Shown here piece after piece: positions 9,248 through 61,699 of a DNA stretch of 64,000 nt (positions within the stretch are counted from its first letter, which is position 1; the number at the start of each line of letters is the position of its first letter). The notes beneath the pieces were generated by a model. That model was not told the DNA's origin, made no database searches, and saw nothing but the letters and a program-made list of their open reading frames with translations. The position numbers and the translations under genes were made by a program. Source of the DNA: Ruminococcus sp. (lineage in GTDB: Bacteria > Bacillota > Clostridia > Oscillospirales > Ruminococcaceae); NCBI GenBank assembly GCA_031262835.1, contig JAISGY010000021.1, positions 707 to 64,706 of the forward strand, given 5' to 3'.

Positions 9248-9439
9248 ATGACTGACTTCTTAAAATCCATAGGCGAAAAATACCCGGACTTGCTAAGATA
9301 TTTGAAAGGGTTGAAACGTCCGGCAAAACCCGAATGGCGAGACTATGAAAACGCAAAAGGTTATTTAAGAACGTTTCCTTTATCGTGTGACGAATATGAC
9401 GAGTGCAGACGATACATAGAAAAACGGTTAGGTATATGA
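9248..9439 (+). CDS. hypothetical protein (63 aa)
   Basis: ORF co-oriented with the module. No recognisable motif. Confidence 0.45.
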   Translation: MTDFLKSIGEKYPDLLRYLKGLKRPAKPEWRDYENAKGYLRTFPLSCDEYDECRRYIEKRLGI

Positions 9440-9451
9440 GGGGGTGAAACC

Positions 9452-9775: not shown

Positions 9776-9865
9776 TTTTATCCGCTTCAATGTGAAATTA
9801 CCCTCATAAAAAACAAACGCCGTAAATCGAAAAAATACGGCGTTTTAGAATGATATAAAGCATTA

Positions 9866-10612: not shown

Positions 10613-10799
10613 TCTGTCCCTCTTTTCCCATAGCCTCATTTATAGCACGGTTTATGAAGCCGTTGACCGTTTCTCCCTTGCTGTCTGCATATGCCTTAAT
10701 AACGTCCTTTTCACCCTTTTTAACCTTTAATTCAATCCTGTCATAAGCGTTTTTGTTATATTCGCGTTTGTAGTCCGTTGCTTTTGTTCCCATGAACAC
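10602..10799 (-). CDS. small ribbon-helix-helix/Arc-like DNA-binding protein
   Basis: YDRIELKVKKGEKDVIKAYADSKGETVNGFINRAINEA pattern. It overlaps the Fic start. Confidence 0.55.
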   Translation of the reverse strand: MFMGTKATDYKREYNKNAYDRIELKVKKGEKDVIKAYADSKGETVNGFINRAINEAMGKEGQNDE

Positions 10800-10844
10800 A
10801 CCCCCTTATTTGATAATTTAATTATAACACAGTAAGCACAAAAT

Positions 10845-10936
10845 ATCTACCGTTAGATTGTACAAAATATCTAACGTAAGTTTGTGCAACATTTTTCATA
10901 AAAACACTTGACATATCTAACGTTAGATGTTATAAT
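10845..10936. promoter_or_regulatory. divergent control region: three ATCTAACGTTAGAT-type boxes and a TTGACA-17-TATAAT promoter
   Basis: Boxes at 10845-10858 (atctaccgttagat), 10869-10882 (atctaacgtaagtt) and 10915-10928 (perfect palindrome). The last box fills the spacer between -35 (10908-10913) and -10 (10931-10936). Confidence 0.65.
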
Positions 10937-10990
10937 ATAATCACAGGGTAAGACAAACGAACCCGATAATATGAAAGGGCGGAAAAGATT

Positions 10991-11266
10991 ATGAGTAACA
11001 ACGAACTTCACGAACTGATTAAGGAACTCAAAGAGTACAAACTCCTCAAAGAGGAAGCAGAGGCAAGAATCTCCGAGCTTGAGGGCGAACTCAAAGCAGA
11101 GATGACCGCACAGGGAAAAGACAAGATAACCGTTGACGAATACAAAGTGGCACTCTCAATCGTCACACAGCAGAGAATAGACAGCAAGAGACTTGAATCC
11201 GAGCAACCGACAATCTACACAATGTACCTTAAACCGAGCGTATACACCCGGTTGACAGTACGATAA
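10991..11266 (+). CDS. hypothetical coiled-coil protein (91 aa)
   Basis: ORF downstream of the promoter with a heptad-rich N-terminus. No assignable family. Confidence 0.55.
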   Translation: MSNNELHELIKELKEYKLLKEEAEARISELEGELKAEMTAQGKDKITVDEYKVALSIVTQQRIDSKRLESEQPTIYTMYLKPSVYTRLTVR

Positions 11267-11360
11267 AGGAAAACCCCTTGCGTGAGGTGCGAACTCACGC
11301 AGGGGGAATCCCATAAGTTAAAGAAAGGGCTTTCCTACATTGTATCACACTTGACGGAGT

Positions 11361-11645
11361 ATGTCAAGATATTATAAGAAAGATTTGGTGAAAATCATGA
11401 GTGCTTTAGAAATCCTGTTTGATAACTTTATACAGTTACCGCACAACAACCCGGAATCGGAAGAAGCCGAAGACAAGCTTTGCGATTTTGTTTACCGATA
11501 CACAAAAACAGTTGAGGACGGAAATACGTTTTATGAGCTGTTGGGAGACATGACATATGCAGAATGCAAGCGAGCGTTCCGGGCGGGCTTCATTGCCGGA
11601 GCTTATCCGCTTCAAGGCGATCCGACACAAGAGGGGGTGAGATAA
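11361..11645 (+). CDS. hypothetical protein (94 aa)
   Basis: ORF joined to the next ORF by a TAATG overlap. Confidence 0.45.
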   Translation: MSRYYKKDLVKIMSALEILFDNFIQLPHNNPESEEAEDKLCDFVYRYTKTVEDGNTFYELLGDMTYAECKRAFRAGFIAGAYPLQGDPTQEGVR

Positions 11646-11944
11646 TGAAAGAGATAGGCTCTTTTGAAAGTTCGGAAATCTTTAATTCGGCGATAGCGTG
11701 GAAAAAAGCTTTTACCGAAAAGTACGAAGAGGAAATAGCAGCTCCCGAATGGATTTTAATTCAAGCGTGTACAGATGTGGACGGACACATAGAAGACAGC
11801 GTTATCAAGGCAGTCCGGGAAGCGGTACGTGAGATTTTTTCGCAAGGGTATTCAAGGGGTACTATTGACGGCTATGTAAAGTGCTTTAACACTCACAATA
11901 CCGACCGCCGGCACATAGTCCATGTTCGCCGCCGTTCTGCATGA
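11645..11944 (+). CDS. hypothetical protein (99 aa)
   Basis: Internal ATG of the listed ORF, preceded by GAGGGGGTGAG. Starts MKEIGSFESS. Confidence 0.45.
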   Translation: MKEIGSFESSEIFNSAIAWKKAFTEKYEEEIAAPEWILIQACTDVDGHIEDSVIKAVREAVREIFSQGYSRGTIDGYVKCFNTHNTDRRHIVHVRRRSA

Positions 11945-12119
11945 TATGCCGGGGTGAACCGCTTCAAAAAGGGGGGGTGAGATAACTCTCCCCCTTTTCG
12001 GGGGGCTTTTGTCACTTTTGTCACCATATTTTCAGTTTTTTATTTTATTTTTTCAGCCTTTTTTCTTTGTTTCACAATGAAAATGCAATGTTAAAGTCAT
12101 AGTTTACATATATATTAAC

Positions 12120-12148
12120 TTGCATTTTTATCTATGCTATGTTACAAT
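12120..12148 (+). promoter_or_regulatory. promoter upstream of the island sigma-factor gene
   Basis: TTGCAT-17 nt-TACAAT. Confidence 0.45.
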
Positions 12149-12199
12149 ATAAAAAGAGCCTCCTACCGCTTCGAGTAATAATTTCAAGGGGTGTAACGC

Positions 12200-13087
12200 A
12201 TGAGCAATGAAGAACTTGCAGTTTTAATTAAAGCCGGGGAAACCGCCCTTTATTCGCAGCTGTGGACTGGGTGCGAGCGGTATTTCCGTAAACGTTCAAA
12301 TAGCTATTATCGGCATAATGAAAACAGAGCAAAAGGTGCAGGACAGACGGCAGAGGATTTTTATAACGCTTGCTTTTTCGCTATGGTGAATGCTGTGGAG
12401 AGTTTCGACCCCGAAAGCGGTTATACATACCTTACATACACAAATTACCATATTCTCAATGAATTCCGCTCCCTTATCGGTATTAAGCTAAAACGCCGGA
12501 ATCCTCTTGATGACAGCAGCAGTCTTGACGAAACCGCACAAGACGGCGAAACCGCTTATATAGAGCTTATTGAAGACCCGGAAAGCCTTGAACCATTTGA
12601 GGAAATTGCAGAGCGAGAAGACACCCTCATGCTCCGGGCGGAACTTGAAGCGGCTATTGACACGCTCCCGGAACGTGAAGCGGATATTATACGCCGGCAT
12701 TATTTCGAGGGAATCCCGGTTGAACAGATAGCGGAGCGGATAGGTGTTTCACGAAAGCGCGGTTATGATTTAGAGCGGCGAGGGCTTGACAGTTTAAGGA
12801 AAATTGACAAACTGGAGCGTTATCATGATGACATTATTTCGCATGAAGCTTATCACCACACCGGGCTTAATGCATGGAAAACAAGCGGCGTTTCTTCCGT
12901 TGAAAGGGCGGTTGAGATGGCAGAACGGCTTACAACGCGGCGAGCAGAACTTAACGACAATGAGTATATAATTCTGAAAGTTTATTCTGAGGGTATGCCG
13001 GTAACTGCAATTGCACGAATGCTACATATTTCCCCCGGCTATGTTAAAAGACTTTGTGCGAAACATTTATTGCACGGGGCGGCTTGA
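12200..13087 (+). CDS. sigma-70-family RNA polymerase sigma factor with an extra C-terminal HTH
   Basis: Region 2-like N-terminus, region 4 (LPEREADIIRRHYFEGIPVEQIAERIGVSRKRGYDLERRGLDSLRK) and a second HTH (MPVTAIARMLHISPGYVKRL). Confidence 0.8.
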   Translation: MSNEELAVLIKAGETALYSQLWTGCERYFRKRSNSYYRHNENRAKGAGQTAEDFYNACFFAMVNAVESFDPESGYTYLTYTNYHILNEFRSLIGIKLKRRNPLDDSSSLDETAQDGETAYIELIEDPESLEPFEEIAEREDTLMLRAELEAAIDTLPEREADIIRRHYFEGIPVEQIAERIGVSRKRGYDLERRGLDSLRKIDKLERYHDDIISHEAYHHTGLNAWKTSGVSSVERAVEMAERLTTRRAELNDNEYIILKVYSEGMPVTAIARMLHISPGYVKRLCAKHLLHGAA

Positions 13088-13181
13088 ATCACTCAGCCCC
13101 CCCTCCGACAAGCAGCGAAGGTGGTGTTTCGTGTGAGAAAACGCATAATCAAATGATTTTTACTAAAATTCATTTTTAGTA

Positions 13182-13210
13182 TTGCATTTTGAATATGGTT
13201 ATGCTATAAT
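13182..13210 (+). promoter_or_regulatory. outward-facing promoter at the right end of the island
   Basis: TTGCAT-17 nt-TATAAT pointing at attR and the 52-bp repeats. It shares TTGCATTTT and ATGCTAT with the sigma-gene promoter. Confidence 0.4.
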
Positions 13211-13336
13211 GATAAGAGATTTTTGCCCGAAAAAAGAAGATGAAAATAAAACTTGCATACAGAATTGCATACATTTTTAGTAATAAAATCCGTGAACCCT
13301 TATAAAATGGGCGTTCAAAGACCGCCTGTATTATTT

Positions 13337-13500
13337 GAGTGGGAATAAAATATATGAAAAAGAAAGAAATTTTAAGTTAAGTTTTTTTGAGTGGGAATAA
13401 AATATATGAAAAAGAAAGAAATTTTAAGTTAAGTTTTTTTGAGTGGGAATAAAATATTTGAAAAAGAAAGAAATTTTAAGTTAAGTTTTTTCGAGTGGAA
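13337..13500 (+). repeat. 3 full copies plus 1 partial copy of a 52-bp tandem repeat, each starting with a pseudo guaA terminus
   Basis: Units at 13337, 13389 and 13441, with a partial unit at 13493. Copies 1 and 2 are identical and copy 3 has 2 substitutions. Each begins GAGTGGGAATAA (EWE-stop). Confidence 0.95.
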
Positions 13501-13603
13501 ACAACAAAATTAATCATTATTTTCCCCCCGACGGCGGGCTTTTTTTGTTACTTTTGCACGAAAATTCTTTCGTTATGCCCGAAAATAAAACCACTTTATG
13601 TGC

Positions 13604-13657
13604 AAACGAACAAATGTTCGTTTTTCGCTTGACAAATGACCGAAAATATGGTATAAT
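13604..13657 (+). promoter_or_regulatory. operator palindrome plus promoter of the second replication module
   Basis: Perfect palindrome aaacgaaca-aa-tgttcgttt (13604-13623), then TTGACA (13629-13634)-17 nt-TATAAT (13652-13657). Confidence 0.6.
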
Positions 13658-13678
13658 AGGGGCATGGGGGGTGAAGGA

Positions 13679-14290
13679 ATGGTGTTTGAAATTGTCCGCG
13701 AGAGCGTCTCGGCGGAGCGGGCGGCGGCTTATTACGGCATTGAAATCAAGCGGAAACGTTGCCGCTGTCCGTTCCATAACGGCAATGACTTCAACCTGTC
13801 TTTTCACGGCGGCGGCTTTAACTGCTTTGTCTGCGGTACTCATGGCGACAGTATTGAGTTTACAAGACTGCTATTCGGGTACCAGAAGCCCATTGACGCC
13901 GTAAAGCGGCTCAACAGCGACTTTTGTTTATGCCTTGACTTAGGCAAAGTGGGAAAGGGTGAATGGAATCCAACCCTTGCCGACATAAGGCGAAAAACAG
14001 CCGAACGTGAGCTCCCAAAAGCGGTACATAAAATCCTGTGGGAATTTGCCTTGAACCTTGACTGGGTGAAACGTTCACTTGCGCCTAAAACGCCCGAAGA
14101 AAAGCCTTTGGACGTTTGGTTTTATGCCTTGCAAAACTTGTCATTCGCAGAGTATATCCTCGACTGTTTCGAGAATTTGACGCACGAGGGGCAACTTGAT
14201 TTTGCTGTAAAAGAAAAGGAGATGATTTCCCTATATGAACGAATTTCAAAGTTTATTGACGGCTTACGAAGGACTTGCAACGCCGCATAA
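13679..14290 (+). CDS. CHC2 zinc-finger protein, paralogue of 6946-7593
   Basis: CPFHNGNDFNLSFHGGGFNCFVCGTHGD, collinear with the first copy. Confidence 0.75.
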   Translation: MVFEIVRESVSAERAAAYYGIEIKRKRCRCPFHNGNDFNLSFHGGGFNCFVCGTHGDSIEFTRLLFGYQKPIDAVKRLNSDFCLCLDLGKVGKGEWNPTLADIRRKTAERELPKAVHKILWEFALNLDWVKRSLAPKTPEEKPLDVWFYALQNLSFAEYILDCFENLTHEGQLDFAVKEKEMISLYERISKFIDGLRRTCNAA

Positions 14291-15764
14291 CGAAAATCAA
14301 TCGTTATTTGCGGAATTTATACCGCTCGAAAACTCCGAGCCGCTCCCGGCGTTTCCGCTTGGTGCTTTCAATCGGATTTGTCCCGGCGTGGGCGAGTTCA
14401 TTTTTGCGGCAACAGAGAGCATACAAACGTCCTTCGACCTTGTTGGTTCTTGCACACTCGGAGTGCTTCAAATTGCCTGTAACGGGCGTTATCCCGTCAG
14501 CTTGCCGAACGGGCACAAGGAGCAGCCCTGCTTCTATATCGCGCCGATTGCGCCGCCCTCTGAACGCAAGAGCGGAGTTATTGCCGCTGTAACACGTCCG
14601 CTTACCGATTTTGAAAACGCTTACAACGAAGAACACGACGCCGACGCGGCTCTTAAAAGGAGCGAGCTTAAGGTACTGCAAGGGCGCATTGCAGAGACTG
14701 AACACGCTATGATAAAGGCGAAATCGAGCGACGCTTATGACGCTGCTGCTTTTGAACTTGAAAAGCTTAACAATGAGCTTGCGGCATTTGAAGAGGCCTC
14801 ACCGCTGCGGCTGTTTGGTGCAGACGTTACGCCCGAGAAGCTTGCCTCAATGCTTAAGGCGCAAGGCGAGGTGTTCGCGCTTGTGTCCGCAGAGGGTGGC
14901 GGCATTTTCGAGAATATCGGGCGGTATTCCGACAAGGGCGGGCTTGAAATTTACCTCAACGGCTACAGCGGCGACAGGGTTACCGTTGACCGAAAGATGT
15001 CCGAGAGTGTTGTAATTGAACACCCCACGCTTAACCTAATCCTGCCCTGCCAGCCGTCGGTTATAACAGACCTGTTTTCGGACAAGCAGAAATCCGGGCG
15101 AGGGCTCCTGTCAAGGATACTTTTTGTCGACTGTTACACACGTTTAGGCAAGCGGGAAGCAATGAGCAAGCCCATTGACGGTAACATTGCCGCGAGTTAC
15201 AATAGTCTTATCAACAATATCCTTTCCGACGGGGGTAAGGGAGAATTGCAATTTGACGACGGCGGCAAGGCGGTTTACGAGTCGTTCTTTAACGAAATCG
15301 AGCCGGGTTTAGCACCCGACGACGGCGAGCTCCATTTTATGGGGGATTGGGCAGGTAAACTTCCCGGGCAGATGGTGCGCCTTGCAGGGCTTATCCACTG
15401 CATAGCCGCCTTTGAAAAGCACCGAAACCCTCTTGACAGCTTCATTAACGCAGACGAAGCCGCTGCCGCTGTCACACTCGCAAGGTATTTCCTCGCACAC
15501 GCCAAGGCGGTATATCGCGGGCAGAGAGAGCCGAAGGAATTAGCCAATGCGCGATACCTGTGGAAGCGAATAAATTCAATAAATTCAACCTTTTTTAGTA
15601 AAAGCGAATTGACACGCAAGGTTCAATCAAAGACTGATTTTGATTATTCAGAATCCCTCAAGCTGCTTGTTGATAACGGATATATCAGAATCGAGGTGAA
15701 TTTACCAGAGCACAGCAAAAAACCTGTTGAGACTATATACGTAAATCCAGAAGCGGTTAAGTGA
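14235..15764 (+). CDS. DUF3987/YfjI-like replication protein, paralogue of 7538-9127
   Basis: Collinear similarity along the whole length (for example FIPLENSEPLP.FPL, APIAPPSERKSGVI, LRLFGADVTPEKLA). Confidence 0.6.
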   Translation: MNEFQSLLTAYEGLATPHNENQSLFAEFIPLENSEPLPAFPLGAFNRICPGVGEFIFAATESIQTSFDLVGSCTLGVLQIACNGRYPVSLPNGHKEQPCFYIAPIAPPSERKSGVIAAVTRPLTDFENAYNEEHDADAALKRSELKVLQGRIAETEHAMIKAKSSDAYDAAAFELEKLNNELAAFEEASPLRLFGADVTPEKLASMLKAQGEVFALVSAEGGGIFENIGRYSDKGGLEIYLNGYSGDRVTVDRKMSESVVIEHPTLNLILPCQPSVITDLFSDKQKSGRGLLSRILFVDCYTRLGKREAMSKPIDGNIAASYNSLINNILSDGGKGELQFDDGGKAVYESFFNEIEPGLAPDDGELHFMGDWAGKLPGQMVRLAGLIHCIAAFEKHRNPLDSFINADEAAAAVTLARYFLAHAKAVYRGQREPKELANARYLWKRINSINSTFFSKSELTRKVQSKTDFDYSESLKLLVDNGYIRIEVNLPEHSKKPVETIYVNPEAVK

Positions 15765-50946: not shown

Positions 50947-51249
50947 TTACACCATATTTATCATTTCAAGGTACTGTACGGTTTCGCGAAATCCCGGGCG
51001 CACATCTGCTATCTTCCCGTTTCTGAACGCAATCGCAGTCGGTACACCGGTTATGTTATACCGCTTTGCAAGTTCGGAGTTCGTGTCAAAATCAATTATC
51101 TTTACTTTCTCACGGCATTTTTCATCAAGCTGCTTTAGTTCATCTAAAAGTATTAAGCAAAGCGGACACCAATTCGCGTAAAAAACAGCAACCATACTGT
51201 CCTTGTATTCATCAAAATTCTCAAGCGTAAGTGCAGTAATCGCGGTCAC
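50947..51249 (-). CDS. thioredoxin-like protein (WCPLC active site)
   Basis: FYANWCPLC motif and thioredoxin-fold length. It has a 4-nt overlap with the upstream gene. Confidence 0.8.
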   Translation of the reverse strand: MTAITALTLENFDEYKDSMVAVFYANWCPLCLILLDELKQLDEKCREKVKIIDFDTNSELAKRYNITGVPTAIAFRNGKIADVRPGFRETVQYLEMINMV

Positions 51250-52325
51250 GAGTCCTCCCCTACCCCAATGCTTCTAAACCAATTTCTGTTATAGAGTATC
51301 GAATCGGTTACCTTATATTCCGCCGCAATTTCATTATATTTATAAGCCGTTTTTTCATCACCGAGCTTTGAATAACACACACAAATCTGAATCGCCGGAA
51401 GATAACCGTAGCAATCAGGAAGTATAAACGCGCCGGAATCAAAATCAGGTTCCTGCGACAGCGCGTTTTTATACCAATATATCGCTTGCTTATACGCCTT
51501 AATATTCATGAATTGCCGCCCGAGCTCACAGCTTGTTTCCGCACGCGGCGTGTCATAGATAAGCGTTTCAAAGAGCGACATAAACGCATTGCTCTGCTCC
51601 CCCATACGCTCAAAGCACTCCGCCCTGATTCGACAGGCATCGATATTGTTTTCAATCCAACCTTTTTTTGAATTAATGAATTTTGTTAACACTTCGATGG
51701 CATCGTGATTTCGATTGTGGTAAAAAAGTTCTCTGCCGTAATAAAACATATCCCTCGGCGATAATTCTTCGCCCAATCCGATATGTTTTTCGTATAGATT
51801 GATGTTGCGGTCGGAATCCCCTGTCCCTGTTTTGTGATGTTCTACAGGCAGCGAAACGCTTATAATATTCCCGAACATTGTAATTGTTTCGTGTATAAAA
51901 CCCTGCCAGAGCGCATATTCGCAATTTTTAATAATACGCTCCCGCTGATATGTAAAGGTTGGTTTGCCGTTCGCAAATCCGGTGTGGTACGGCATCCTAA
52001 CTACGTCTATATCCCTTTTAAGTTCTTTCTTGAGTTTTATAAGCCCAAAACGAGTATCTTCAGGTAAAATATCATCGGCATCAAGCCACATTATATACTC
52101 GCTCGAAGCTTTTGAAAACGCAAAATTACGCGCTGCCGCAAAATCGTCAACCCAAACGAAGTCGTATATTTTGTCGGTAAAAGCAGCGGCGATTTCCTTA
52201 GTTTTATCGGTGCTGCCCGTGTCGGCGATGATTATTTCGTCAAAGACGCCCTTAACACTGTCAAGGCAATTTTTCAAGTTTTTTTCTTCGTTCTTTACAA
52301 TCATACAAAGGCTCAAAGTTATCAT
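51246..52325 (-). CDS. family-2 glycosyltransferase with C-terminal TPR-like repeats
   Basis: LSLCMIVKNEE, IIADTGSTDKT and LDADD motifs, with helical repeats in the C-terminal half. Confidence 0.8.
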   Translation of the reverse strand: MITLSLCMIVKNEEKNLKNCLDSVKGVFDEIIIADTGSTDKTKEIAAAFTDKIYDFVWVDDFAAARNFAFSKASSEYIMWLDADDILPEDTRFGLIKLKKELKRDIDVVRMPYHTGFANGKPTFTYQRERIIKNCEYALWQGFIHETITMFGNIISVSLPVEHHKTGTGDSDRNINLYEKHIGLGEELSPRDMFYYGRELFYHNRNHDAIEVLTKFINSKKGWIENNIDACRIRAECFERMGEQSNAFMSLFETLIYDTPRAETSCELGRQFMNIKAYKQAIYWYKNALSQEPDFDSGAFILPDCYGYLPAIQICVCYSKLGDEKTAYKYNEIAAEYKVTDSILYNRNWFRSIGVGEDS

Positions 52326-52394
52326 TAAAGTTACCTCGTTTTAATAGCTTCTTACATTATATGATTGTATTATATTTTGTGTTACAAAGTTTTT

Positions 52395-53276
52395 TTATTG
52401 TACAGCAGCACAGATTGCATATGCAGCAATTGAATGTGAAGTTCCGAGGATAGATGATGTTGTATTTTTAGCGGTAACCTGCCAGCTGTTCCCTGTAATA
52501 TTAGGTGTACTGCGGGTGAAAATTATCTCCCCGCTGTTGTCGGGTTCAAGGAAACCGCCGGAAATCATCTTTGTCCCGTTTGGGCAGGTTGCGGTAAGGC
52601 TGTTAACTACTCCGCCTCCGGAAACAGTTGCTGTGTTTACAATTGTTGAAAGCGTTCCGTATGAACCGGGTGCTCCGGTTGCTCCTGTTGCGCCGGTTGC
52701 GCCGGTTGCGCCTGTTGCGCCTGCTGCTCCGGTTGCGCCTGCTGCTCCTGTTGCTCCTGTTGCGCCCTTTACGCCTTGAATTCCTTGTACCCCTGTTGCG
52801 CCGGTTGCTCCGGTTGCTCCGGGTGTACCCTGTACGCCCTGTGTACCCTGTGCGCCTGTCGCGCCTGTTACGCCTTGAATTCCTTGTGCGCCTGTCGCTC
52901 CGGTTGCTCCGGTTGCTCCGGTTGCTCCGGTTGCTCCTGTTGCGCCTTGAATTCCTTGTGCTCCTGTCGCGCCGGTTGCTCCGGTTGCTCCGGGTGTACC
53001 CTGTGCGCCTTGTGTACCCTGTGCGCCTGTCGCGCCTGTCGCGCCTGTTACTCCTGTTGCGCCTGTTGCGCCCGTCGCTCCTGTTGCGCCGGGGTTACCT
53101 TGCAACCCCTGAATACCTTGAGGACCTTCCGCGCCCTGTATCCCCTCAACGCCTTGAGGACCTTGTGCTCCTGTTGCTCCTGTCGCTCCTGTCACTCCGG
53201 TTTCGCCTTGTATTCCCTGAACGCCTTGTTCACCCTGTAACCCGGTTGCCCCTGTCGCTCCTGTTGCCGCACTTAT
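52395..53276 (-). pseudogene. 3' half of a split collagen-like (BclA-like) gene: G-X-Y repeats plus a C-terminal globular domain; no start codon of its own
   Basis: The reading frame opens immediately after a TAA (53279-53277) as [15 protein letters not shown].... The listed start at 53195 is an internal GTG. It ends with a roughly 95-aa domain ([15 protein letters not shown]...[10 protein letters not shown]). Confidence 0.7.
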
Positions 53277-53289
53277 TTATCCGCAACTT

Positions 53290-54894
53290 TTAATCCTTTA
53301 ACCCGTCATTAAAGCAAAATACAATTGATATTTCGCGGCATTCATGTACATAGACGTTTTCAACAAGCTCTGCAAGAACCCCTCGGGTTATTTTCTTGAA
53401 ATTCTTATGTCTCCCCCATTCGTCAAAAAAACTGTTATCCTCTGCCTTTATAATCTCCTTTTGTTCCTTAAAAAGATTACATAAATCTTCGTTTATTTGA
53501 TTAACCGAAGTTTCAAACTTATTTTTCAACCGCCGATAATCAGTCTCTGTAATTTCGCCGGTTTTCCAGTCCATATATAAACTGTCAAGGGCAGTATTGT
53601 ACTTCGCCGATTCACGGTTTTTATCGGCAATCAATTTTTCAATGTGCTTAGTATTTGAAGCGGTTAGAGTTTCGTCAACAATGTCCGCAAGTGAATCTAA
53701 AAGGTTCACATGCAACTGTATAACCGCCAAAACACAATTATATAAAACATCTTCGCGTATTGAATGTTTCGTGCATTTTTTATCGGATTTATCGGTGTAT
53801 GTTCGGCAAGCGTAGTAAACATAACCCTTCGCACTCCTTCGCTCCAAAGCCTTATTACAATCGAAACAACGCATAAATCCCGAAAACAAATGCAGTGTCC
53901 GTGAGTCGTCAGCCGTTCTTGTGTCACGTAACAAAAGCCGCTCAAGCCTGTTATACTCGTCCTGCGTGAAGGTTGGCTCGTGCGTATTTTCTTTAATAAT
54001 CCACTCATCTTCCGGCACGGCAACTTTATCGTGAACCTTATAACTCACAACCCTTTGTTTACCCTGCACCATATGCCCGAGATTAACCTTGTCAAGAAGA
54101 ACTCGTCTAACCGTCTGCCCCGTCCAAAGACCGTCATTAATATCGGAATTGGGATTAAAGTAATTCCATCCCTTGCTCGCTTTATATGAAGTGGGATTCG
54201 GTACACCCAAATCGTTAAGCTTTTTCGCCGCTCCGCGAAGACTCATTCCGTCACCGACAATCCAATAGTAAATCTCTTTTTTTATCGGAATAATATTTTC
54301 ATCTAAGATAAGGTGATTTTTATTATTCGGGTCTTTAAGATAACCATACGGCGGGAACGCTCCGATGAATTCGCCGTTCCTGCGTTTTGTTGCGAAAGTA
54401 CGGCGAATATCGCTCGATGTTTTCGCGGCGTAGCGGTCGTTCATAAGCCCTGTTATAGGCACTTCAAGCCCCAATAAAACCTCCGGTTCGGTAAATGTAT
54501 CAATCTTCGGGTCACCCGTTGAAATAAATCGAACCTGCTTTTGCGGGAAATAATATTCGAGATAGTAACCTTGGTCGGAGTAGTTACGAAACGCTCTTGA
54601 AAGCGTCTTGCAGACAATGCAGTTTACACGCCCGTCTTCAATGTCTTTTATCATTCTCATAAAGTCTTTACGGCTGTCGTCGGTGCCGGAAAGCCCATCA
54701 TCTATGTAGAAATCCGCTAACTCGAATTTATCATTAAAATATTCCTCAAGATACTCGGTTAGAATTTTCTTTTGATTTGTAACACTTTCGCTCTCTGTAT
54801 TGCCGTCTTCTCTGGAAAGGCGGATATAGACGGCTACTCTCCATGTTTTTTCAGCGGTTTCTTGCTTGTCGGCATTTCGTTTACGGCGCGCCAT
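53290..54894 (-). CDS. large serine recombinase
   Basis: VAVYIRLSREDG catalytic Ser region, DDGLSGTD, a recombinase domain, a zinc ribbon (CFDCNKAL...YYACRTY...KCTKH) and a coiled-coil tail. Confidence 0.92.
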   Translation of the reverse strand: MARRKRNADKQETAEKTWRVAVYIRLSREDGNTESESVTNQKKILTEYLEEYFNDKFELADFYIDDGLSGTDDSRKDFMRMIKDIEDGRVNCIVCKTLSRAFRNYSDQGYYLEYYFPQKQVRFISTGDPKIDTFTEPEVLLGLEVPITGLMNDRYAAKTSSDIRRTFATKRRNGEFIGAFPPYGYLKDPNNKNHLILDENIIPIKKEIYYWIVGDGMSLRGAAKKLNDLGVPNPTSYKASKGWNYFNPNSDINDGLWTGQTVRRVLLDKVNLGHMVQGKQRVVSYKVHDKVAVPEDEWIIKENTHEPTFTQDEYNRLERLLLRDTRTADDSRTLHLFSGFMRCFDCNKALERRSAKGYVYYACRTYTDKSDKKCTKHSIREDVLYNCVLAVIQLHVNLLDSLADIVDETLTASNTKHIEKLIADKNRESAKYNTALDSLYMDWKTGEITETDYRRLKNKFETSVNQINEDLCNLFKEQKEIIKAEDNSFFDEWGRHKNFKKITRGVLAELVENVYVHECREISIVFCFNDGLKD

Positions 54895-54904
54895 CTACTC
54901 CCCC

Positions 54905-57900
54905 CTAAAAGCATGGATTGTAGGTATTTGTAAATACAGGCACTGTCCCCTCGTCATAGCTGACCCGTGCTGCAAGCGTTCCCTGTCCGTTATCAGAAAC
55001 GGTAACGGTAACGCCGGCGGTTTTATCGTCACACTGCCAACCGTTGCCGGAGATATTCAGTTCTTTTATGAAGAAACGGTAAACGCCTGCTTTATTGAAA
55101 CTCTGCGCAGGAAATGACACAAAACCGTCTTCATCATTTCTTGCGGAGGAAATCTGTGTACCGCTGCTGTCGAACAGTCCGAAGTTGAACCAATTTGGAT
55201 AAAGTTCTGTTCCGCAGACACACTTGTTTGCGTATATTTTTGCCGTTACAGGCGCAAGTTCATAGGTATTTGTAAAAACAGGTGCTCCGTTAGGGTAAGA
55301 AATTTCTGCCCTTGTTGTTCCGTCCCCATTGTCAATAACACTTATATGAAGCAGATATTTATTCTTATCCGTTGTCCAGTTGTCACCGTCGGGAGTTATT
55401 TCATGTATGGTAAAATTGTAGTCGCCTATGGGCAGATTAAATTCCGAGAAGGTAATATTCCCATCTCCGTCATTTTTTGCGTACAAAATTATTGTACCGT
55501 CGTCGTTAGTAAGTTGAAACTCAAACTGTCCTGCTTCAAAGTTTTTGCCGACAGCGGTCTTTTTTGCGGTAATATTAATCGGTGAATCCGAGGCAGCATA
55601 GTAGTTATCAAAGATAGGTACAGTACCGTCGGGATAGTCCACGCTTGCGGCAAGATTTTGGTGCTCGTCTCGGGTAACAGTCACAACAACCGGAAATGTT
55701 CTTAAGTCGCTTCTCCAGCCTGCTCCGACGGAAGGATTCTCCTCTTCGATCGTGTAACTGTACGTTCCGGGTTCGGTATAGTCAAGCACGCCGAAATCGA
55801 TCTGTCCGTCTTTATTCTGCGCGGTTTCTATAACGTTTCCCTTATCGTCCTTGAGGATAAAACTAAACTGTTTTTCGGTATTGTTCCATCCGTGCACAAC
55901 CTTCCCGGCAGTGATTTTTTCGGAAACAGGTTTATTATTATAGATGTTATTAAAAACAGGTATACCGCCCGGATAAGAAACTTTCGCGCTTAAAGTACCG
56001 TCGCCGTTGTCCGTTATGTTAACGTTAACGGGATAAGCTGACTTATCGGTTATCCATCCGTTTCCGTCAACGCTTACTTCGCGCATCGTATAGACGGTGT
56101 TTCCGACCTTCGACGAGAAAAACAACGGGAAATGAATTTTTCCGTCAGCGTGATTAAATCCCATTGCGATTATGTTGTTATTCTCGTCGTAAAGTGCGAA
56201 GCTGAAACGGCTGTCGGAGAGTTCCCCTCCGCTTGCTGTTTTTGTCGGGATTTCTCCGCTCGGATTGTTGTTGATAATATTGCCGACATTTGCGGGAATT
56301 GCTGTGTAAATGGGATTGAAAATATCGCCGTTCGGGTAGGTTGCAATTGATGAGCTTGTACCGTCGCCGTTGTCGGTTACATTAACATGAACAGGGAGTT
56401 CGGGTACATCAAAAGTCCAGCCGTTTCCGTTAGGAGGCGCAACAATTCTATAATCGTAATCGCCGTCCGGCAGATTCAATGTCGGGAAAACTATATTGCC
56501 GTTATCGTCATTATGTGCAGTCCCGACAATATTTCCCTTATCGTCAACAACGTTAAACTCGAATTCGCCGTCCGCCGGAGTTTTACCATGCCCGATAACT
56601 ACTCCCTTTATATCCGCATCGGCGTTGTCAGAGCTGTAAACGTTATCAAATACAGGCGTACCGTTCGGGTAGGTTACCTCCGCCGTCCTGTGTCCTTTAC
56701 CGTCGTCTGTAATATTAACCTTCACGGGGTAGCTTGACTTATCGACACTCCAACCGCCGCCGTCAGACGTTAACTCCTTCACTTCATAGTCCGTTTCACC
56801 GAGTTTCGACGAATAAAACAGCGGGAATCTTATACTGCCGTCGGCGTTATTAAACCCGACAGCAACAAGGTTTCCGTTACTGTCATACAGTCCGAATCGA
56901 AACTGACTGTTTGTCATAGCCTTGCCGGTTGCAGTTTTTTTAGGAGTTCCTGAAATTACACTGCCTATATTCACCGGAAGTGTTGAATATGTATTGACAA
57001 ACTGCGGTGCTGTGTTGTTGCTGTCGGGATAGTCAACGGCTGCAATTAAACCGCCCTTTCCGTCATCAGTCATATGAACAATTACACGATATGAATTTAC
57101 AGGTATTGTCCAACCGTCCGGGAGCGGCATTTCTTCATTGACTGTATATTCATAATCACCTGGTTCTATGTATTCCAACGTCCCGAAATCAAGCGTCCCG
57201 GCTGAACTTGTTATTTCTTTAACTATATTGCCGTCCTTGTCCTTAAGACTAAACCTGAAGGTTGGTGCAGTTTGCCCGGTTGTGAAGCCTTGCAGCGATT
57301 TGAATGCCAAAATATGCTCTGAACCCTCTGTCGTGTATGTGTTTATAAACGCAGGCTCGGGTGTCGGTTGTACTATCTCTGCGACAAGCTGCCCTTTACC
57401 ATTGTCGGTAACAATAACCTTGTAGGGGTAACTCGACTTGTCGGTAGTATAACCGCCGCCGTCCGGTGTAGTTTCCTTAACCGTATAGTCATATTCGCCC
57501 GGTTTATCAAAGTAACCGACCGGGAATTTTATATCGCCGTTTACGTCATTTGTACCTGTTGTAACGAGGTTGCCTTGAGCATCAAAAACGCCGAATGTAA
57601 ACTGCCCCGCTTCAAGAGGTTTTCCGCCCGAAACCGCTTTTTTCGTCTTCGGCGTACCTTCCTCCCCTGTGGTTGCCTGTGAGGGTTTATAGGTATTAAC
57701 TAAAGTCGGAACACGGTCAATTGCCGCTGTAAGCTGTCCTGAACCGTCGTCAGTTACCGTTACATTAACATTATGGAGAGTTTTATCAAGTGTCCAGCCG
57801 TCACCGTCTGCGCCTTCCTCGAAGATAGTCAGTTCTGTGTTATCACGGGTTTCAAACTCCCCGAAGTCAATTGTACCGTCCGTCCCCTGTATACGCGTCA

Positions 57901-59722
57901 AGATGCCGTCTGAATTTCGTAAAACAAAGGTAAACTGTTTATCCGACTTTTCGGGCAGCGTCCAGCCGTTTATGACTTTATGCGCGGTAACATGATATTG
58001 TGCCGGAGCGGGTTCATAGTAAGCATTGAAATCAGGGTCGGCGGGATAGGTTACTTCGGGGGTGGAAGTGCCGTTGCCGTTATCCTTAACGCCGACATGA
58101 ACGGGAATAGACGGCTTGTCGAATGTCCAGCCGTTGCTGTCTTCCGGGGGTATTACTTCAAAACTGTAATCGCCGGCAGGCAGATTTATATCCGGGAAAA
58201 CAATATTTCCGTCCTTGTCATTCTGTGCCTTTCCGACAATATTTCCGTTCTTATCAACTATATTAAATTCAAACTCACCGCCCGTGAGAGGTTTTCCGTG
58301 CGCGATAACCTTATCCTTTATCCCGACAGGCGACTCCGTATAGGTATAGGTATTGACGAAATTGGGGTTGAGTTCGGGATTATAGGTAACCTTTGCGGCA
58401 AGATTGCCGCTTCCGTCCTTCGTAACCGAAATATGAACGGAGCAATAATGCCTGTCATACTGCCAACCGGGTTTCGGCGGGTTATCAACGACCTCCGCCA
58501 TCTCGTAGTCATGTTCGCCGATTTCATTATAACTTATGTCGGGGAAAACAATTGTGCCGTCGGGGTTATTTGTAACGGTTGAAATAATCTTCCCGTTCTC
58601 GATTAAATTAAACCTAAAAGTTCCTCCCGTTATTACGGAAGAATTGGATTTATTCTGTTTTGAAGCTTGAATTTTAACGGTTGCGGGAGCTTTTTCATTG
58701 ACAAAAACGGGTGCTTTTCCGCCTTCCCAAGATATAGAGCCCTTAAGAGGCAGGTTGTCATTTTTGCCGTCGTCTGTTATCGTAATTGCAGCGCGGTATT
58801 CGGTTTTATCTGCGGCATATTTTCCTGTCGGGTCGGGAAGTTCACGAACGGTATAATTATAAGTACCCGGACTGACAAATGTTATCGGTGTAAACGTAAC
58901 AGTCCCCGCCGCAGTATTTGTGCCGGTTGCAACCTGATTACCGTTATCGTCAAACAAGCCGAATTGAAACTGATTGTCGGTCTGAGCTGAGCCGTCCGCA
59001 ATTTTTTTTGTTACGTTATTATCGGGGTCGAGCCCTTGAGCTCCGTCCCACCCGTCCCCGAGGCTGTAAATATTCGGTGCTTTCCATTTATAGCCGATGT
59101 CGTCGTTGTTATAGGCATATTTATTCGGAGAGGTAAACTGTGTTGTCTTAATATGCGCATTATGTACCGGGATATCTGTCGGCTTTAAGATTTCGGCATT
59201 CCCTGTTGTTGCCTTATTGTTTGAAAAAGTAACAGTTGACGAAACGTCAAGATTCACAAGCTCTTTCTGCGGGACATATATTGCGCCGCCGTTTTGGGCT
59301 TCGTTGTCGGCAATTGTCGCTTGATCTATAGTTATAACAGAATTTCCTAAGTTTATTGCTCCGCCGTTAGTATTCGGTGTTCGGTTCCCGATAAGATCTA
59401 CGCCGTTTTTGAGTATCAGTCTTGTATTGTTTCCGGCAATTAAGCTGCCTCCCGCGTCGGGGTATTTACTCTTATTGACGTCTATGATTAAATTAGAGAT
59501 GGTTAACGCCGCACCGTCGGACAGTTTTATTAAGTCGCCTGTTGCCCCTCTGGTAAGACGGTGTAGGGAATCCGCGCCATTAATTATAACGGTTTTCCCG
59601 GCGGGAATTGTTATGTCTTTTGTTACAGAAAAATCTCCGGTAACATTTATATTAATGTTGCTGTCAGATGACGCAAGAGCAGTGTTTAGCGTTTCCATGC
59701 TGTTTACATTATAATCTGCCAT
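54905..59722 (-). CDS. 1606-aa protein: N-terminal parallel beta-helix (GGAI-type repeats) plus 12 tandem Spy0128/FctA-like isopeptide domains; no signal peptide, no LPXTG
   Basis: Twelve repeats of F.F.L.D..G.....(N/T).D.G.I.FP...(Y/F)...G.Y.Y.(I/V).E...(G)W..D.....V.V.VTD(D/N)G.G.....V.YP....F.N.Y. The start at MADYNV (59722) is coupled to the upstream stop. Confidence 0.85.
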   Translation of the reverse strand: MADYNVNSMETLNTALASSDSNININVTGDFSVTKDITIPAGKTVIINGADSLHRLTRGATGDLIKLSDGAALTISNLIIDVNKSKYPDAGGSLIAGNNTRLILKNGVDLIGNRTPNTNGGAINLGNSVITIDQATIADNEAQNGGAIYVPQKELVNLDVSSTVTFSNNKATTGNAEILKPTDIPVHNAHIKTTQFTSPNKYAYNNDDIGYKWKAPNIYSLGDGWDGAQGLDPDNNVTKKIADGSAQTDNQFQFGLFDDNGNQVATGTNTAAGTVTFTPITFVSPGTYNYTVRELPDPTGKYAADKTEYRAAITITDDGKNDNLPLKGSISWEGGKAPVFVNEKAPATVKIQASKQNKSNSSVITGGTFRFNLIENGKIISTVTNNPDGTIVFPDISYNEIGEHDYEMAEVVDNPPKPGWQYDRHYCSVHISVTKDGSGNLAAKVTYNPELNPNFVNTYTYTESPVGIKDKVIAHGKPLTGGEFEFNIVDKNGNIVGKAQNDKDGNIVFPDINLPAGDYSFEVIPPEDSNGWTFDKPSIPVHVGVKDNGNGTSTPEVTYPADPDFNAYYEPAPAQYHVTAHKVINGWTLPEKSDKQFTFVLRNSDGILTRIQGTDGTIDFGEFETRDNTELTIFEEGADGDGWTLDKTLHNVNVTVTDDGSGQLTAAIDRVPTLVNTYKPSQATTGEEGTPKTKKAVSGGKPLEAGQFTFGVFDAQGNLVTTGTNDVNGDIKFPVGYFDKPGEYDYTVKETTPDGGGYTTDKSSYPYKVIVTDNGKGQLVAEIVQPTPEPAFINTYTTEGSEHILAFKSLQGFTTGQTAPTFRFSLKDKDGNIVKEITSSAGTLDFGTLEYIEPGDYEYTVNEEMPLPDGWTIPVNSYRVIVHMTDDGKGGLIAAVDYPDSNNTAPQFVNTYSTLPVNIGSVISGTPKKTATGKAMTNSQFRFGLYDSNGNLVAVGFNNADGSIRFPLFYSSKLGETDYEVKELTSDGGGWSVDKSSYPVKVNITDDGKGHRTAEVTYPNGTPVFDNVYSSDNADADIKGVVIGHGKTPADGEFEFNVVDDKGNIVGTAHNDDNGNIVFPTLNLPDGDYDYRIVAPPNGNGWTFDVPELPVHVNVTDNGDGTSSSIATYPNGDIFNPIYTAIPANVGNIINNNPSGEIPTKTASGGELSDSRFSFALYDENNNIIAMGFNHADGKIHFPLFFSSKVGNTVYTMREVSVDGNGWITDKSAYPVNVNITDNGDGTLSAKVSYPGGIPVFNNIYNNKPVSEKITAGKVVHGWNNTEKQFSFILKDDKGNVIETAQNKDGQIDFGVLDYTEPGTYSYTIEEENPSVGAGWRSDLRTFPVVVTVTRDEHQNLAASVDYPDGTVPIFDNYYAASDSPINITAKKTAVGKNFEAGQFEFQLTNDDGTIILYAKNDGDGNITFSEFNLPIGDYNFTIHEITPDGDNWTTDKNKYLLHISVIDNGDGTTRAEISYPNGAPVFTNTYELAPVTAKIYANKCVCGTELYPNWFNFGLFDSSGTQISSARNDEDGFVSFPAQSFNKAGVYRFFIKELNISGNGWQCDDKTAGVTVTVSDNGQGTLAARVSYDEGTVPVFTNTYNPCF

Positions 59723-59723
59723 A

Positions 59724-59981
59724 TTAAAATTCTCCTTTTCTCCTCTGCCCCATGAGATAAGACTTAATACACTCCCTAAGCGGTTTCCCGCCTTCTGTAA
59801 ACTCCACATTTACCGCAATATCCCCGCAGCGGAAGTGGTAGGGATTTTTAACCTGAGAAAGATACTGCTCTGCTCGTTTTTCGACAGATGCGTTCATATC
59901 AATTTCAATGTCATTGATATCTACACGCTCTGATAGCGTGGGGCGTTCGTCTTTTAGTTTATTAAGTTCTTCTACAGTCAA
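59724..59981 (-). CDS. small protein (85 aa) of a family I recall seeing next to serine recombinases in Clostridia elements (DUF6870-like?)
   Basis: TTG start preceded by GGGGAG. Contains a KNPYHFRCGDIAVNVEF motif. The family call is from memory only. Confidence 0.5.
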   Translation of the reverse strand: MTVEELNKLKDERPTLSERVDINDIEIDMNASVEKRAEQYLSQVKNPYHFRCGDIAVNVEFTEGGKPLRECIKSYLMGQRRKGEF

Positions 59982-60063
59982 AGTGTTACACTCCCCATTA
60001 TCACAAGATACTAAATCTTATGAGCGGGCAGAGAAAAACTTGCATGAGCTTTACTATTTCTGT

Positions 60064-60102
60064 AAATAAAAAACGCCTTGAAAGAGAAGTTTCTTTCACA
60101 AG
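60064..60102 (-). terminator. intrinsic terminator immediately after the premature stop of the collagen 5' half
   Basis: Minus strand: cttgtgaaaga-aacttc-tctttcaag followed by gcgttttttattt, 16 nt downstream of the TAA. Confidence 0.55.
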
Positions 60103-60117
60103 CGGTTGTGGGTTTAT

Positions 60118-61641
60118 TTACGCTCCTGTTGCTCCGGCTGCCCCCGTAACACCCTGTATGCCCTGAACACCTTGTATACCTTGCGGTCCTGTTGCGCCCG
60201 GTTCGCCCTGTAAACCTTGCTCGCCCTGTATACCCTGTTCGCCGGTCGTACCTTTTATACCCTGCGGACCTGTAGCACCTGTTGCGCCTTGTATCCCCTG
60301 TATGCCTTGTTCACCGTCGTTGCCCTGCGGTCCTGTCGGTCCTGTCGCTCCGATTGCACCGGTTGCGCCGGTCACGCCCTGCAATCCCTGAACGCCCTGT
60401 GCACCTGTCTGTCCTGTTGCCCCTGTGGTACCGCGTTCGCCTTGTACACCCTGTTCCCCCTGTATACCCTGTGCGCCTGTCGCACCTGTCGCGCCGGCTG
60501 CACCTGCCGGTCCTGCCTCTCCCGTCGGACCTACAGCACCGTCCGCGCCTGTCGGTCCGGTTGCGCCGCGTTCACCCTGTATCCCCTGTTCGCCATGAAT
60601 ACCCTGCGGACCGGTTGCGCCGGTTGCACCCGGTTCGCCTTGTTCACCCTGAACACCTTGAATACCCTGCGGACCGGCAATCTGTCCGACATTCTGCCAG
60701 CTCTGCGAATCCGTGTCCCATATGTAAAGATCGGGATTAACATAATAAGCGTCGCCCTGCGTTCCTGTGGGGTGTGCGGCGATTAAATCGTCATAGTTAT
60801 CAAAAGAGCCGGAAAGTGCGCCGACTTCCCCCGCAATACCCTGTATACCCTGCGGTCCGGTCGCGCCGGTTGCACCGGGTTCACCCTGCACACCCTGTAT
60901 ACCCTGCACCCCTTGAGAGCCTGTCGCGCCGGTCGCTCCCATCGGACCTTCGGGACCTGTCGCACCCGTCACGCCGGGTTCACCCTGAATTCCTTGTGTC
61001 CCGGTATTCCCAATGACACCTTGAATCCCCTGTAAACCTTGAATACCCTGCGGACCTGTCGCTCCTGTCGGACCCATTTCCCCGACCATACCCATGATGC
61101 CTTGTATGCCCTGTATGCCTTGCGCGCCTGTTGCTCCCGGAACGCCGTCCGCGCCTTTTTGCCCAACTAAACCCTGTTCGCCGCGAACACCCTGTATACC
61201 TTGAACACCCTGAATACCGTCGGCGCCCGTCGGTCCTGTCGGTCCGGGAATACCCTGTGCGCCGGTCTCTCCCCTCATGCCGGCTTCGCCGCGTTCACCC
61301 TGTTCGCCCTGTATACCGGGTTCACCCTGTAAACCCTGAATACCCTGTGCACCGGTCGCGCCTGCCGGTCCGGGAGAACCGTCCGCGCCTGTTGCGCCGC
61401 GTTCGCCCTGTATCCCCTGAACCCCTTGAAGTCCGCGTGCGCCGGTTTCTCCAGTTGCGCCCCTCGGACCCTGCTTGCCCGCCGACCCGGCGATCCCCTG
61501 CACGCCTTGTATACCTTGAATGCCCTGTATGCCGGTTGCTCCTGTCGGTCCTCTTTCACCCTGCGGTCCTGTATTTCCTGTCGGGCAAGCGTATGGACAT
61601 CCTCCGTTTATAACGGGACAATCTTCATAGTATCTATACAT
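60118..61641 (-). CDS. 5' half of the collagen-like (BclA-like) gene: Cys-rich N-terminus plus G-X-Y repeats, ending abruptly within the repeat
   Basis: [31 protein letters not shown]..., a roughly 45-aa non-collagen insert ([39 protein letters not shown]), and the ending ...[11 protein letters not shown]-stop. Confidence 0.8.
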
Positions 61642-61672: not shown

Positions 61673-61699
61673 TATCCTATGCAAAATTTCGCTCTGTGT
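61673..61699 (-). promoter_or_regulatory. possible sigma-K-type promoter for the collagen-like gene
   Basis: Minus strand AC-16 nt-CATAGGATA fits AC-N16/17-CATAnnnTA, about 30 nt upstream of the ATG. The motif is short, so this is weak. Confidence 0.3.

Follow-up and report, generated by a model that had tools for sequence, protein, structure and literature searches.

Pilin domains locked by isopeptide bonds are a textbook sign that a surface protein depends on Sec and sortase, as in the Spy0128/FctA pilins and fibrillar adhesins (PF12892, TIGR03786; PDB 3B2M, 3KLQ). The collagen-like exosporium glycoproteins of the BclA type (BclA of Bacillus anthracis, BclA1-3 of Clostridioides difficile) are leaderless, are made in the mother cell under sigmaK, and reside in the outermost spore layer as long projecting filaments with a distal globular domain and a genetic link to glycosyltransferases. 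The S-, L-, and F-type endospore appendages (ENA) of Bacillus (Ena1-3, DUF3992) and the A-ENA ‘sporesilk’ are likewise leaderless, mother-cell-assembled, and covalently stabilised spore fibres, A-ENA by auto-crosslinking isopeptide bonds. L-ENA are cross-linked by disulfides and carry at the tip a BclA paralogue, which is collagen-like and has a Cys-Cys motif at its N-terminus, and their gene cluster behaves as a mobile element (bioRxiv 10.1101/2023.10.23.563578). Sporulation-specific gene-intervening elements, i.e., skin in sigK, SPbeta in spsM, gin in gerE, and yin in yabG, are a further known arrangement. Here, a stretch of 64,000 nucleotides of Ruminococcus sp. (assembly GCA_031262835.1, contig JAISGY010000021.1, positions 707 to 64,706 of the forward strand; henceforth the window) was analysed computationally. 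It holds a gene (positions 54905..59722, minus strand; henceforth the fibre gene) for a protein with a beta-helix head and 12 FctA domains but no leader, located on a recombinase element that splits a collagen-like gene. The explanation that we moderately favour is an endospore-surface fibre, which would be made in the mother cell, have an isopeptide-locked stalk and a beta-helix tip, and be anchored via cysteines.

The fibre gene runs from an ATG at 59722 to a stop codon at 54905-54907 and encodes 1605 aa, one fewer than the 1606 aa given in the initial annotation of this DNA. It is documented by the open reading frame (ORF) call, a ribosome-binding site (RBS), Pfam and NCBIfam matches, an exact database match (P0002, ‘MAG: hypothetical protein LBL98_02525 [Ruminococcus sp.]’, with MAG for metagenome-assembled genome), and purifying selection (ratio of nonsynonymous to synonymous substitution rates, dN/dS, ~0.15 vs its relatives P0003 and P0004). 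The start at 59722, giving the N-terminus MADYNV, is well supported because a strong RBS (AAAGGAGAA, 59730-59738) sits 8 nt upstream of the ATG. An upstream start encoding a leader had been named in the initial annotation as something that would refute its hypothesis; only the ATG at 59809 came into question, and it was rejected, being without RBS, overlapping a Pfam-backed DUF6870 ORF by 86 nt, and adding no convincing signal peptide. Signal-peptide classes were assigned here and below by a hydropathy heuristic and not by SignalP. No Sec signal peptide was found in residues 1-60, where the 10-residue hydropathy peaks at 1.22, and the whole protein is without a transmembrane (TM) segment or h-region because the top 19-residue Kyte-Doolittle mean is only 1.26. 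A sortase signal was not found either, the C-terminus FTNTYNPCF being without an LPXTG-like motif and the 15-residue hydropathy peaking at 0.43 in the last 60 residues. The initial statement that signal peptide, TM segment, and sortase signal are all absent is confirmed by these hydropathy maxima and by the FTNTYNPCF end. Sortases gave no Pfam match among the 48 scanned ORFs of the window, and none is listed beside the relatives. Four of the five cysteines of the protein (C1501, C1503, C1564, C1604) fall in the terminal repeat R12, which together with the ...NPCF end (54908..55255, minus strand) is the proposed anchoring end.

The stalk (residues 238-1605; 54908..59011, minus strand) consists of 12 tandem FctA (Spy0128-type) domains, in agreement with the initial annotation. 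Pfam FctA (PF12892) matched 12 stretches with a summed E-value of 1e-153, and NCBIfam TIGR03786 (‘streptococcal pilin isopeptide linkage domain’) matched 10. A full-length phmmer search against PDB sequences returned no match; a profile of the 12 repeats was required, which matched FctB, Spy0128, and several T-antigens and placed the conserved Y.Y.V.E Glu opposite that of KVTE in Spy0128. In the repeat alignment, Lys, Glu, and Asn occupy the consensus positions in 10 of the 12 repeats, and the initial claim that all 12 keep them holds for these ten but not for R3 (residues 462-572; 58007..58339, minus strand) and R8 (residues 1032-1146; 56285..56629, minus strand). Both belong to a variant subtype that lacks the Glu of the Y.Y.V.E strand and has a shifted F-N-x-Y; the subtype is conserved, with P0003 and P0004 holding FEFDI repeats at the same rank. 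An isopeptide bond within R3 is doubtful. Autocatalytic Lys-Asn bonds are predicted for the ten consensus repeats from the positions of the triads. Spy0128-type domains made in Escherichia coli form isopeptide bonds autocatalytically, without enzyme or export.

The head (residues 1-237; 59012..59722, minus strand) is made up of GGAI(Y) turns and a conserved C-terminal cap (...FTSPNKYAYNNDDIGY). An AlphaFold2 (AF2) model of residues 1-350, calculated from a 7-sequence alignment (predicted local distance difference test, pLDDT, 83), comprises a parallel beta-helix of right-handed twist, a cap modelled with less confidence, and an FctB/Spy0128-like domain. Foldseek assigned the stalk domain to FctB and Spy0128 (probability 1.0) and the head to Rhombotarget A (9cdv), 4mxn, pectin methylesterases, and tailspikes. 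The parallel beta-helix of the initial annotation is thus upheld, at a length of ~235 aa instead of ~270 aa. The head is ~110 aa (four coils) shorter than those of P0003, P0004, and P0009, the loss being in-frame, with four GGxIY coils missing between ...NEAQ and NGGAIYV. Weak PF02415 signals were obtained in the heads of relatives. Right-handed helices with repeated GGAI(Y) turns are known from the GGAI/PMP group (PF02415 Chlam_PMP; Rhombotarget A, 9CDV; binding region of the Lactobacillus reuteri SRRP, 5NY0), from which the window head differs in being shortened and in that catalytic residues or a ligand are not assignable.

Proteins that share the head were collected with an exhaustive HMMER scan; a word-indexed protein search with the head alone had given one weak match and missed the query itself. 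The head domain comes in two protein forms. The secreted form combines a signal peptide with an xPxTG-like/TM/basic tail at the C-terminus, and the leaderless form begins at head residue 1-3 and closes with tails such as FLNCYCPPCCCR, FVNHICKPCKPCCC, and FTNTYCQPCPPMRCHPCPP. Full-length proteins were tallied over the best 120 listed matches (121 minus the query's own record) using the hydropathy heuristic: 102 of these 120 have a signal peptide and a TM tail, with 0 Cys in the last 30 residues, and 11 are leaderless and tail-less, with a mean of 1.8 Cys in the last 30 residues. Among the 150 best head-domain matches, 44 are leaderless and tail-less, 30 of which have C-terminal Cys, many in CPPC or CC runs. 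The closest relatives (P0003-P0009, P0013, P0039) are 33-69% identical to the window protein. The nearest of them (49-69% identity) all open directly with the head (MA-x-(Y/F)-x-V) and close with F.N.Y followed by Cys tails (...YYRC, ...YLSC, ...YKPCK, ...GRCDRCEE), and loci from metagenomes follow the same leaderless/Cys-tail pattern. A 13-sequence head alignment was too diverse to serve as a pattern for genome scanning; a 6-sequence pattern found three loci, all from MAGs. As judged from these matches, the missing export signals are a family trait and not an annotation error, and the Cys-rich C-terminal tail stands where secreted relatives carry the sortase signal. The relatives come from JGI sample 3300042599, and the source MAGs are probably from termite and other guts, going by names such as Hm464_bin28 and Rs511_bin9.

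The window protein resembles fibrillar adhesins in its order of N-terminal head, repetitive stalk, and C-terminal attachment end. Unlike sortase pilins, it has no Sec leader, LPXTG, TM segment, charged tail, or nearby sortase, and bears a Cys tail instead; its family carries a sporulation-type promoter motif, and no polymerisation via a pilin motif is implied. Two further forms were noted among the relatives. P0005 (L012:777) and P0007 (L053:1332) constitute a headless sub-branch, in which ~15 residues precede the FctA repeats, with basic Cys-containing tails and the sigmaK-type motif kept. The MAG of P0004 has a second paralogue (L009:10001-11013) with the first 73 head residues, frameshifts, and the last three FctA repeats, ending in ...FTNYYKRIC, which is apparently a degraded or misassembled copy.

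A search for the motif AC-N16/17-CATANNNT, the sigmaK consensus known from Bacillus subtilis, was prompted by AC-N17-CATA upstream of two relatives. It coincides with the sigmaK consensus that has been reported from C. difficile, AC at -35 and CATATAAT at -10; in that species, bclA1-3 depend on sigmaK (PMC3789822). The motif was found 23-73 nt 5' of the start in 8 of 10 leaderless genes with upstream DNA, and both hold-out loci, fetched after the prediction, carry it as well (total 10/12), as opposed to 1 of 19 secreted relatives, despite ~280 nt searched for each (Fisher p 9e-5 for leaderless vs secreted, based on the 8/10 pre-hold-out loci); independent cases are somewhat fewer because the promoters of L001 and L011, and those of L012 and L053, are homologous. 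The background density of the motif is 0.011 per 100 nt. As a specificity control, all 322 ORFs of at least 150 aa with 110 nt of upstream sequence in the fetched loci and the window were inspected, and 15 of them have the motif: 11 leaderless FctA genes, two collagen-like genes, one glycosyltransferase/TPR gene, and one secreted relative. Within these loci, the promoter motif that leaderless FctA genes have in common with BclA-like collagen genes is rare and specific in its position.

One of these collagen-like genes is the gene that is split in the window. Its 5' fragment (60118..61641, minus strand; 507 codons) is without signal peptide and has a Cys-rich N-terminus, and its 3' fragment (52395..53267, minus strand) encodes a non-collagen C-terminal domain. 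The sigmaK-type motif (ACACAGAGCGAAATTTTGCATAGGAT, 61674..61699, minus strand) lies 32 nt 5' of the collagen start codon. Directly 3' of the collagen gene, a glycosyltransferase + TPR gene (51246-52325, minus strand) has its own motif 30 nt upstream (52356..52382, minus strand), an arrangement that recalls the glycosyltransferase genes beside bclA genes. A second, independent linkage was found for P0006 (49% identical, 1977 aa), which lies beside, and divergent from, a tandem of three collagen-like genes (470/337/291 aa; L002:2189-5712, minus strand), with the motif on both sides of the intergenic region. The N-termini of these collagen-like proteins are leaderless and Cys-rich (MSCCNDCNQQESCNNCN..., MSCCNDCN...), and two of the three genes share the C-terminal domain of the window collagen gene. 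Like the BclA proteins, the window protein is leaderless, and collagen-like genes here have both promoter motif and locus in common with the FctA protein. The window protein differs from the BclA triple helix in being a monomeric string of Ig-like isopeptide domains, in its proposed C-terminal anchor (N-terminal in BclA), and in lacking the BclA N-terminal targeting motif. The initial annotation had spoken of a split spore-surface collagen gene; the split is real, and the spore-surface assignment is something we infer and did not observe. Two details of these genes may be added: a non-collagen interruption lies in the middle of the Gly-X-Y region of the window gene (60750-60920, minus strand; collagen residues ~265-320), and automatic gene calls had split the L002 collagen genes into antisense fragments.

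The insertion in the window collagen gene comprises 6865 bp and has the 12-bp core GCAACAGGAGCG as a direct repeat at both junctions (attL, 60121..60132; attR, 53256..53267; both minus strand). In-silico removal of 53268-60132 yields an uninterrupted 793-aa Gly-X-Y collagen-like ORF, with ...GGAGCAACAGGAGCGACAGGGGCAACC... as the predicted restored collagen junction and ...AAGTGCGGCAACAGGAGCGTAAATAAACC... as the predicted circle junction. Cores and restored ORF bear out the placement of the fibre gene inside an element that splits a collagen gene. The element carries, in this order and all co-directional, a DUF6870 gene (PF21757, Pfam E-value 6e-22; 59724..59981, minus strand; 85 aa, TTG start) at its left end, the fibre gene, and a large serine recombinase gene (53290..54894, minus strand; 534 aa, Resolvase + Recombinase + Zn_ribbon_recom) at its right end. 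Only 1 nt separates the DUF6870 stop codon (59724-59726) from the fibre ATG, and the 10 nt between the fibre stop codon and the recombinase start, correctly given in the initial annotation, were recovered with the recombinase ATG at 54894. From the left junction inwards, the stop codon that truncates the collagen N-fragment is followed by a terminator-like hairpin with a T-run (60064..60103, minus strand; -13.5 kcal/mol, z -4.1) and by the box CATAAGATTTAGTAT (60008..60022, minus strand), which resembles a sigmaE/sigmaK -10 element without AC at -35 and lies ~27 nt 5' of the DUF6870 start. The hairpin was folded separately, since a generic sigma-70/terminator scan was uninformative and missed it on account of its AT-rich stem.

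Related elements were found at other loci. The window recombinase is 61% identical to that of L049 and 65% identical to that of the L054 prophage, both of which adjoin collagen-like DNA. L049 (L049:4476-6955) has the order recombinase, 370-bp collagen fragment, stop codon, hairpin, and a DUF6870 gene with 76% identity, from which it follows that two elements flank one collagen piece. DUF6870 loci also adjoin collagen-like DNA at L050:7073-8651 and L051:6258-7454, and L054 (L054:10001-11872) is a real prophage in a collagen-like gene, the terminal recombinase standing directly before collagen-like codons. Equivalent hairpins are present in L049, L050, and L051, the box CATA(A/T)GAT(A/T)TA is conserved in all four related element ends, and the arm beside the recombinase keeps AGTTGCGGATA(A/T)AT. 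Cargo varies among the elements (iron transport genes, a 1706-aa WD40 protein, phage genes). Judged by these loci, serine-recombinase/DUF6870 elements repeatedly target collagen-like genes, and DUF6870 is an element-end gene and not a dedicated partner of the fibre, because its homologues adjoin related recombinases with other cargo. By its position, it is a candidate accessory or directionality factor; its AF2 model (pLDDT 60) was too poor for fold comparison, and no mention of DUF6870 was found in the literature. Small ORFs 5' of the relatives matched no Pfam families, and the 91-aa ORF before P0005 is unrelated to DUF6870. No excised attP/circle junction was found in the viral contigs searched. 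Two side observations concern these elements. The WD40/beta-propeller giant is encoded beside the DUF6870 end on the opposite strand as apparent cargo (L051:8075-13195, minus strand). On a 7.3-kb human faecal ‘Bacteriophage sp.’ record (MT837243.1; L006:1774-6929), DUF6870 is followed by three tandem large serine recombinases, and as no phage structural genes are evident on it, such small ‘phage’ records may be recombinase elements.

The window element is similar to the known gene-intervening elements in having a large serine recombinase at one end, a short core at both junctions, a host gene preceded by a promoter motif of the mother-cell type, and an ORF that is cleanly reconstituted in silico, and it is similar to gin in being a small non-phage element with a recombinase and a small accessory gene. 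Unlike skin, SPbeta, gin, and yin, it targets a repetitive collagen-like structural gene instead of a regulator or enzyme gene, and a gene for a giant structural protein lies between its two end genes; members of its recombinase clade are also found on a real prophage and on elements whose cargo differs. By this likeness to skin, SPbeta, and gin, developmental excision of the window element is putative.

Taken as a spore-surface fibre, the protein would be a leaderless product of the mother-cell cytoplasm, synthesised at a late stage of sporulation, with the sigmaK-type promoter driving expression in the family. The FctA domains would fold in the cytoplasm and lock themselves by autocatalytic Lys-Asn bonds in ten of the twelve, giving a rigid, protease-resistant stalk of ~50 nm with an N-terminal beta-helix tip that is probably glycan-binding. 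The cysteine(s) of the C-terminal repeat would tether the fibre by disulfides to Cys-rich outer-spore material, which could be a basal layer or, by their Cys-rich N-termini, the collagen-like proteins that are co-regulated with it; an anchoring role is suggested by the Cys tails sitting exactly where secreted relatives carry the wall anchor. Lysis of the mother cell would expose the fibre and permit attachment of the spore. In the window copy, the fibre gene would be co-transcribed with the recombinase on the 6.9-kb element, and the collagen gene would become whole again through precise excision, which, as for skin, SPbeta, and gin, would probably take place in the mother cell. That the protein is expressed in the mother cell, located on the spore, anchored by disulfides, and adhesive, and that the element is excised during development, is what we infer from sequence. 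The initial annotation had proposed a spore appendage or exosporium filament assembled from the mother-cell side; a mother-cell/spore structure is favoured by the leaderless subfamily, the Cys tails, the motif at 10 of 12 loci, and the collagen linkage, but nothing indicates a polymerised appendage, and a single ~50-nm stalk per molecule may be formed instead. The contig of the closest relative has a gene for SpoIIID, which speaks for sporulation in that relative. The resemblance to ENA is functional only, with no sequence or fold relationship to Ena subunits: Pfam found no match to the Ena core DUF3992 in the window protein, the fold of which is beta-helix plus FctA. Ena fibres are polymers of small subunits, and here one 1605-aa polypeptide would give the length, with covalent bonds that, unlike those of ENA, would be intramolecular within domains plus putative terminal disulfides.

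Several observations weigh against a spore-surface fibre. The window copy itself has no canonical sigmaK motif; its sole candidate is the -10-like CATAAGAT box 5' of DUF6870, without AC at -35, and the terminator-like hairpin lies between this box and the collagen promoter. Of the sporulation promoter that the initial annotation had suggested looking for, a sigmaK-type motif is present in the family (10/12) but not in canonical form at the window gene. L004 and L009, the two paralogues of one MAG, are also without the motif and have their upstream region in common. The sigma assignment is by consensus alone, as the motif is short and the -10 elements of sigmaE and sigmaK are alike. Collagen linkage is restricted to two of ~15 contexts (window and P0006), and no enrichment of sporulation genes is seen around the relatives: the neighbourhoods of 10 relatives have no recurring sporulation, sortase, secretion, or phage genes and look like ordinary chromosome. 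The capacity of the host to sporulate is not evident within the 64-kb window, the tail of the window protein has a single Cys, far below many relatives, the signal-peptide calls depend on the hydropathy heuristic, and all sequences come from MAGs of uncultured Oscillospiraceae/Ruminococcus.

The single tail Cys would also suit a mother-cell product that is not anchored on the spore, i.e., a free adhesin or matrix released at lysis, or a parasporal body, gluing spores together or to plant fibre for example, cf. the ‘sporesilk’ of Bacillus thuringiensis. Promoter and leaderless evidence apply to such a product in the same way as to an anchored fibre, and auto-crosslinking extracellular spore matrices exist (PMC13111695). 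We regard it as unlikely, given that the Cys tails are strongly conserved at the anchor position of the secreted relatives and that the polarity, head at the N-terminus and tail at the C-terminus, is that of anchored fibrillar adhesins. Export from vegetative cells would require that an unrecognised Sec-independent route exists, for which the Cys tail would be the export or attachment signal. FctA stalks and GGAI beta-helix heads otherwise mark vegetative surface adhesins, and secreted paralogues with the same head occur in the same communities; nevertheless, neither candidate export machinery nor a sortase is encoded beside any of the ~15 family members examined or in the 64-kb window, and the specificity of the sigmaK-type motif to the leaderless form would be left unexplained, which makes a vegetative adhesin quite improbable.

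A product serving the element itself, be it the remnant of a phage protein (fibre or host recognition) or an adhesin for transfer, without any role on spores, is to be considered since the gene is placed between the two end genes of a recombinase element, the true prophage of L054, inserted in a collagen-like gene, has the 65%-identical recombinase at its end, and related elements bear other giant cargo, such as the 1706-aa WD40 protein of L051. The relatives P0003, P0004, P0006, P0009, P0013, and P0039, however, are chromosomal, have their own promoters, and have no recombinase or DUF6870 nearby. Similarity to phages was essentially absent (two weak single-repeat matches in 50,697 phage records; none in plasmids), and the phage ORFs of L054 gave no BLAST match to the window protein; on these two negative searches, an origin as phage fibre was rejected, and a role confined to the element appears just as improbable as the vegetative adhesin. 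Decay of a sortase-anchored adhesin that has lost leader and anchor and is non-functional would fit the ~110 aa missing from the head, the loss of triad residues in two repeats, and a window copy without its own canonical promoter. Against this stand an intact 4.8-kb ORF with strong RBS, a leaderless Cys-tailed design that recurs in dozens of diverged proteins, and the conserved nature of the R3/R8 subtype, also present in P0003 and P0004; with a dN/dS of ~0.15, a pseudogene was rejected, and decay is largely excluded, its probability being very small.

The components of the proposed spore-surface fibre are known, i.e., the FctA stalk, the beta-helix head, the serine-recombinase intervening element, and the BclA-like gene; their combination and the assembly route that it implies are new. 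No description of FctA/pilin-type domains on spores, of leaderless Cys-tailed FctA proteins, or of a recombinase element in a collagen-like gene was found in the literature. A more far-reaching claim, which we put forward tentatively and hold with clearly less confidence than the fibre itself, is a new class of endospore fibre: built by uncultured Oscillospiraceae from FctA domains, made under sigmaK without Sec or sortase, self-locked by isopeptide bonds, anchored by disulfides of a Cys-rich tail that would have evolved instead of the LPXTG signal, and ending in a glycan-binding tip, with fibre gene and candidate excision system forming a minimal developmental element in a co-regulated collagen-like exosporium gene, so that a single mother-cell recombination would lead to expression of the fibre and, at the same time, repair the collagen filament. 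If the fibre is real, a pilin module would have been recruited to a different compartment and assembly route, and a first molecular candidate would be at hand for spore-surface fibres of uncultured Oscillospiraceae/Ruminococcaceae. To our knowledge, nothing is known about spore attachment in these families, in which spore-mediated host-to-host transmission matters. The combination of leaderless start, FctA domains, Cys tail, and AC-N17-CATA would be a predictor usable on any genome. The recombinase/DUF6870 elements would add a structural spore gene to the known targets of gene-intervening elements and be a source of new serine integrases, the core site of which is short and defined.

Apart from the collagen locus, further mobile-element genes were found in the 5' quarter of the window (45-15764). 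They comprise another serine recombinase, truncated at the window edge (45-1457), a tyrosine integrase (4359-5822) with a helix-turn-helix repressor (5812-6432), two primase-type modules with DnaG zinc ribbon and DUF3987 (6925-9127 and 13664-15764), a Fic protein (9866-10639), and a sigma-70 region-4 protein (12200-13087).

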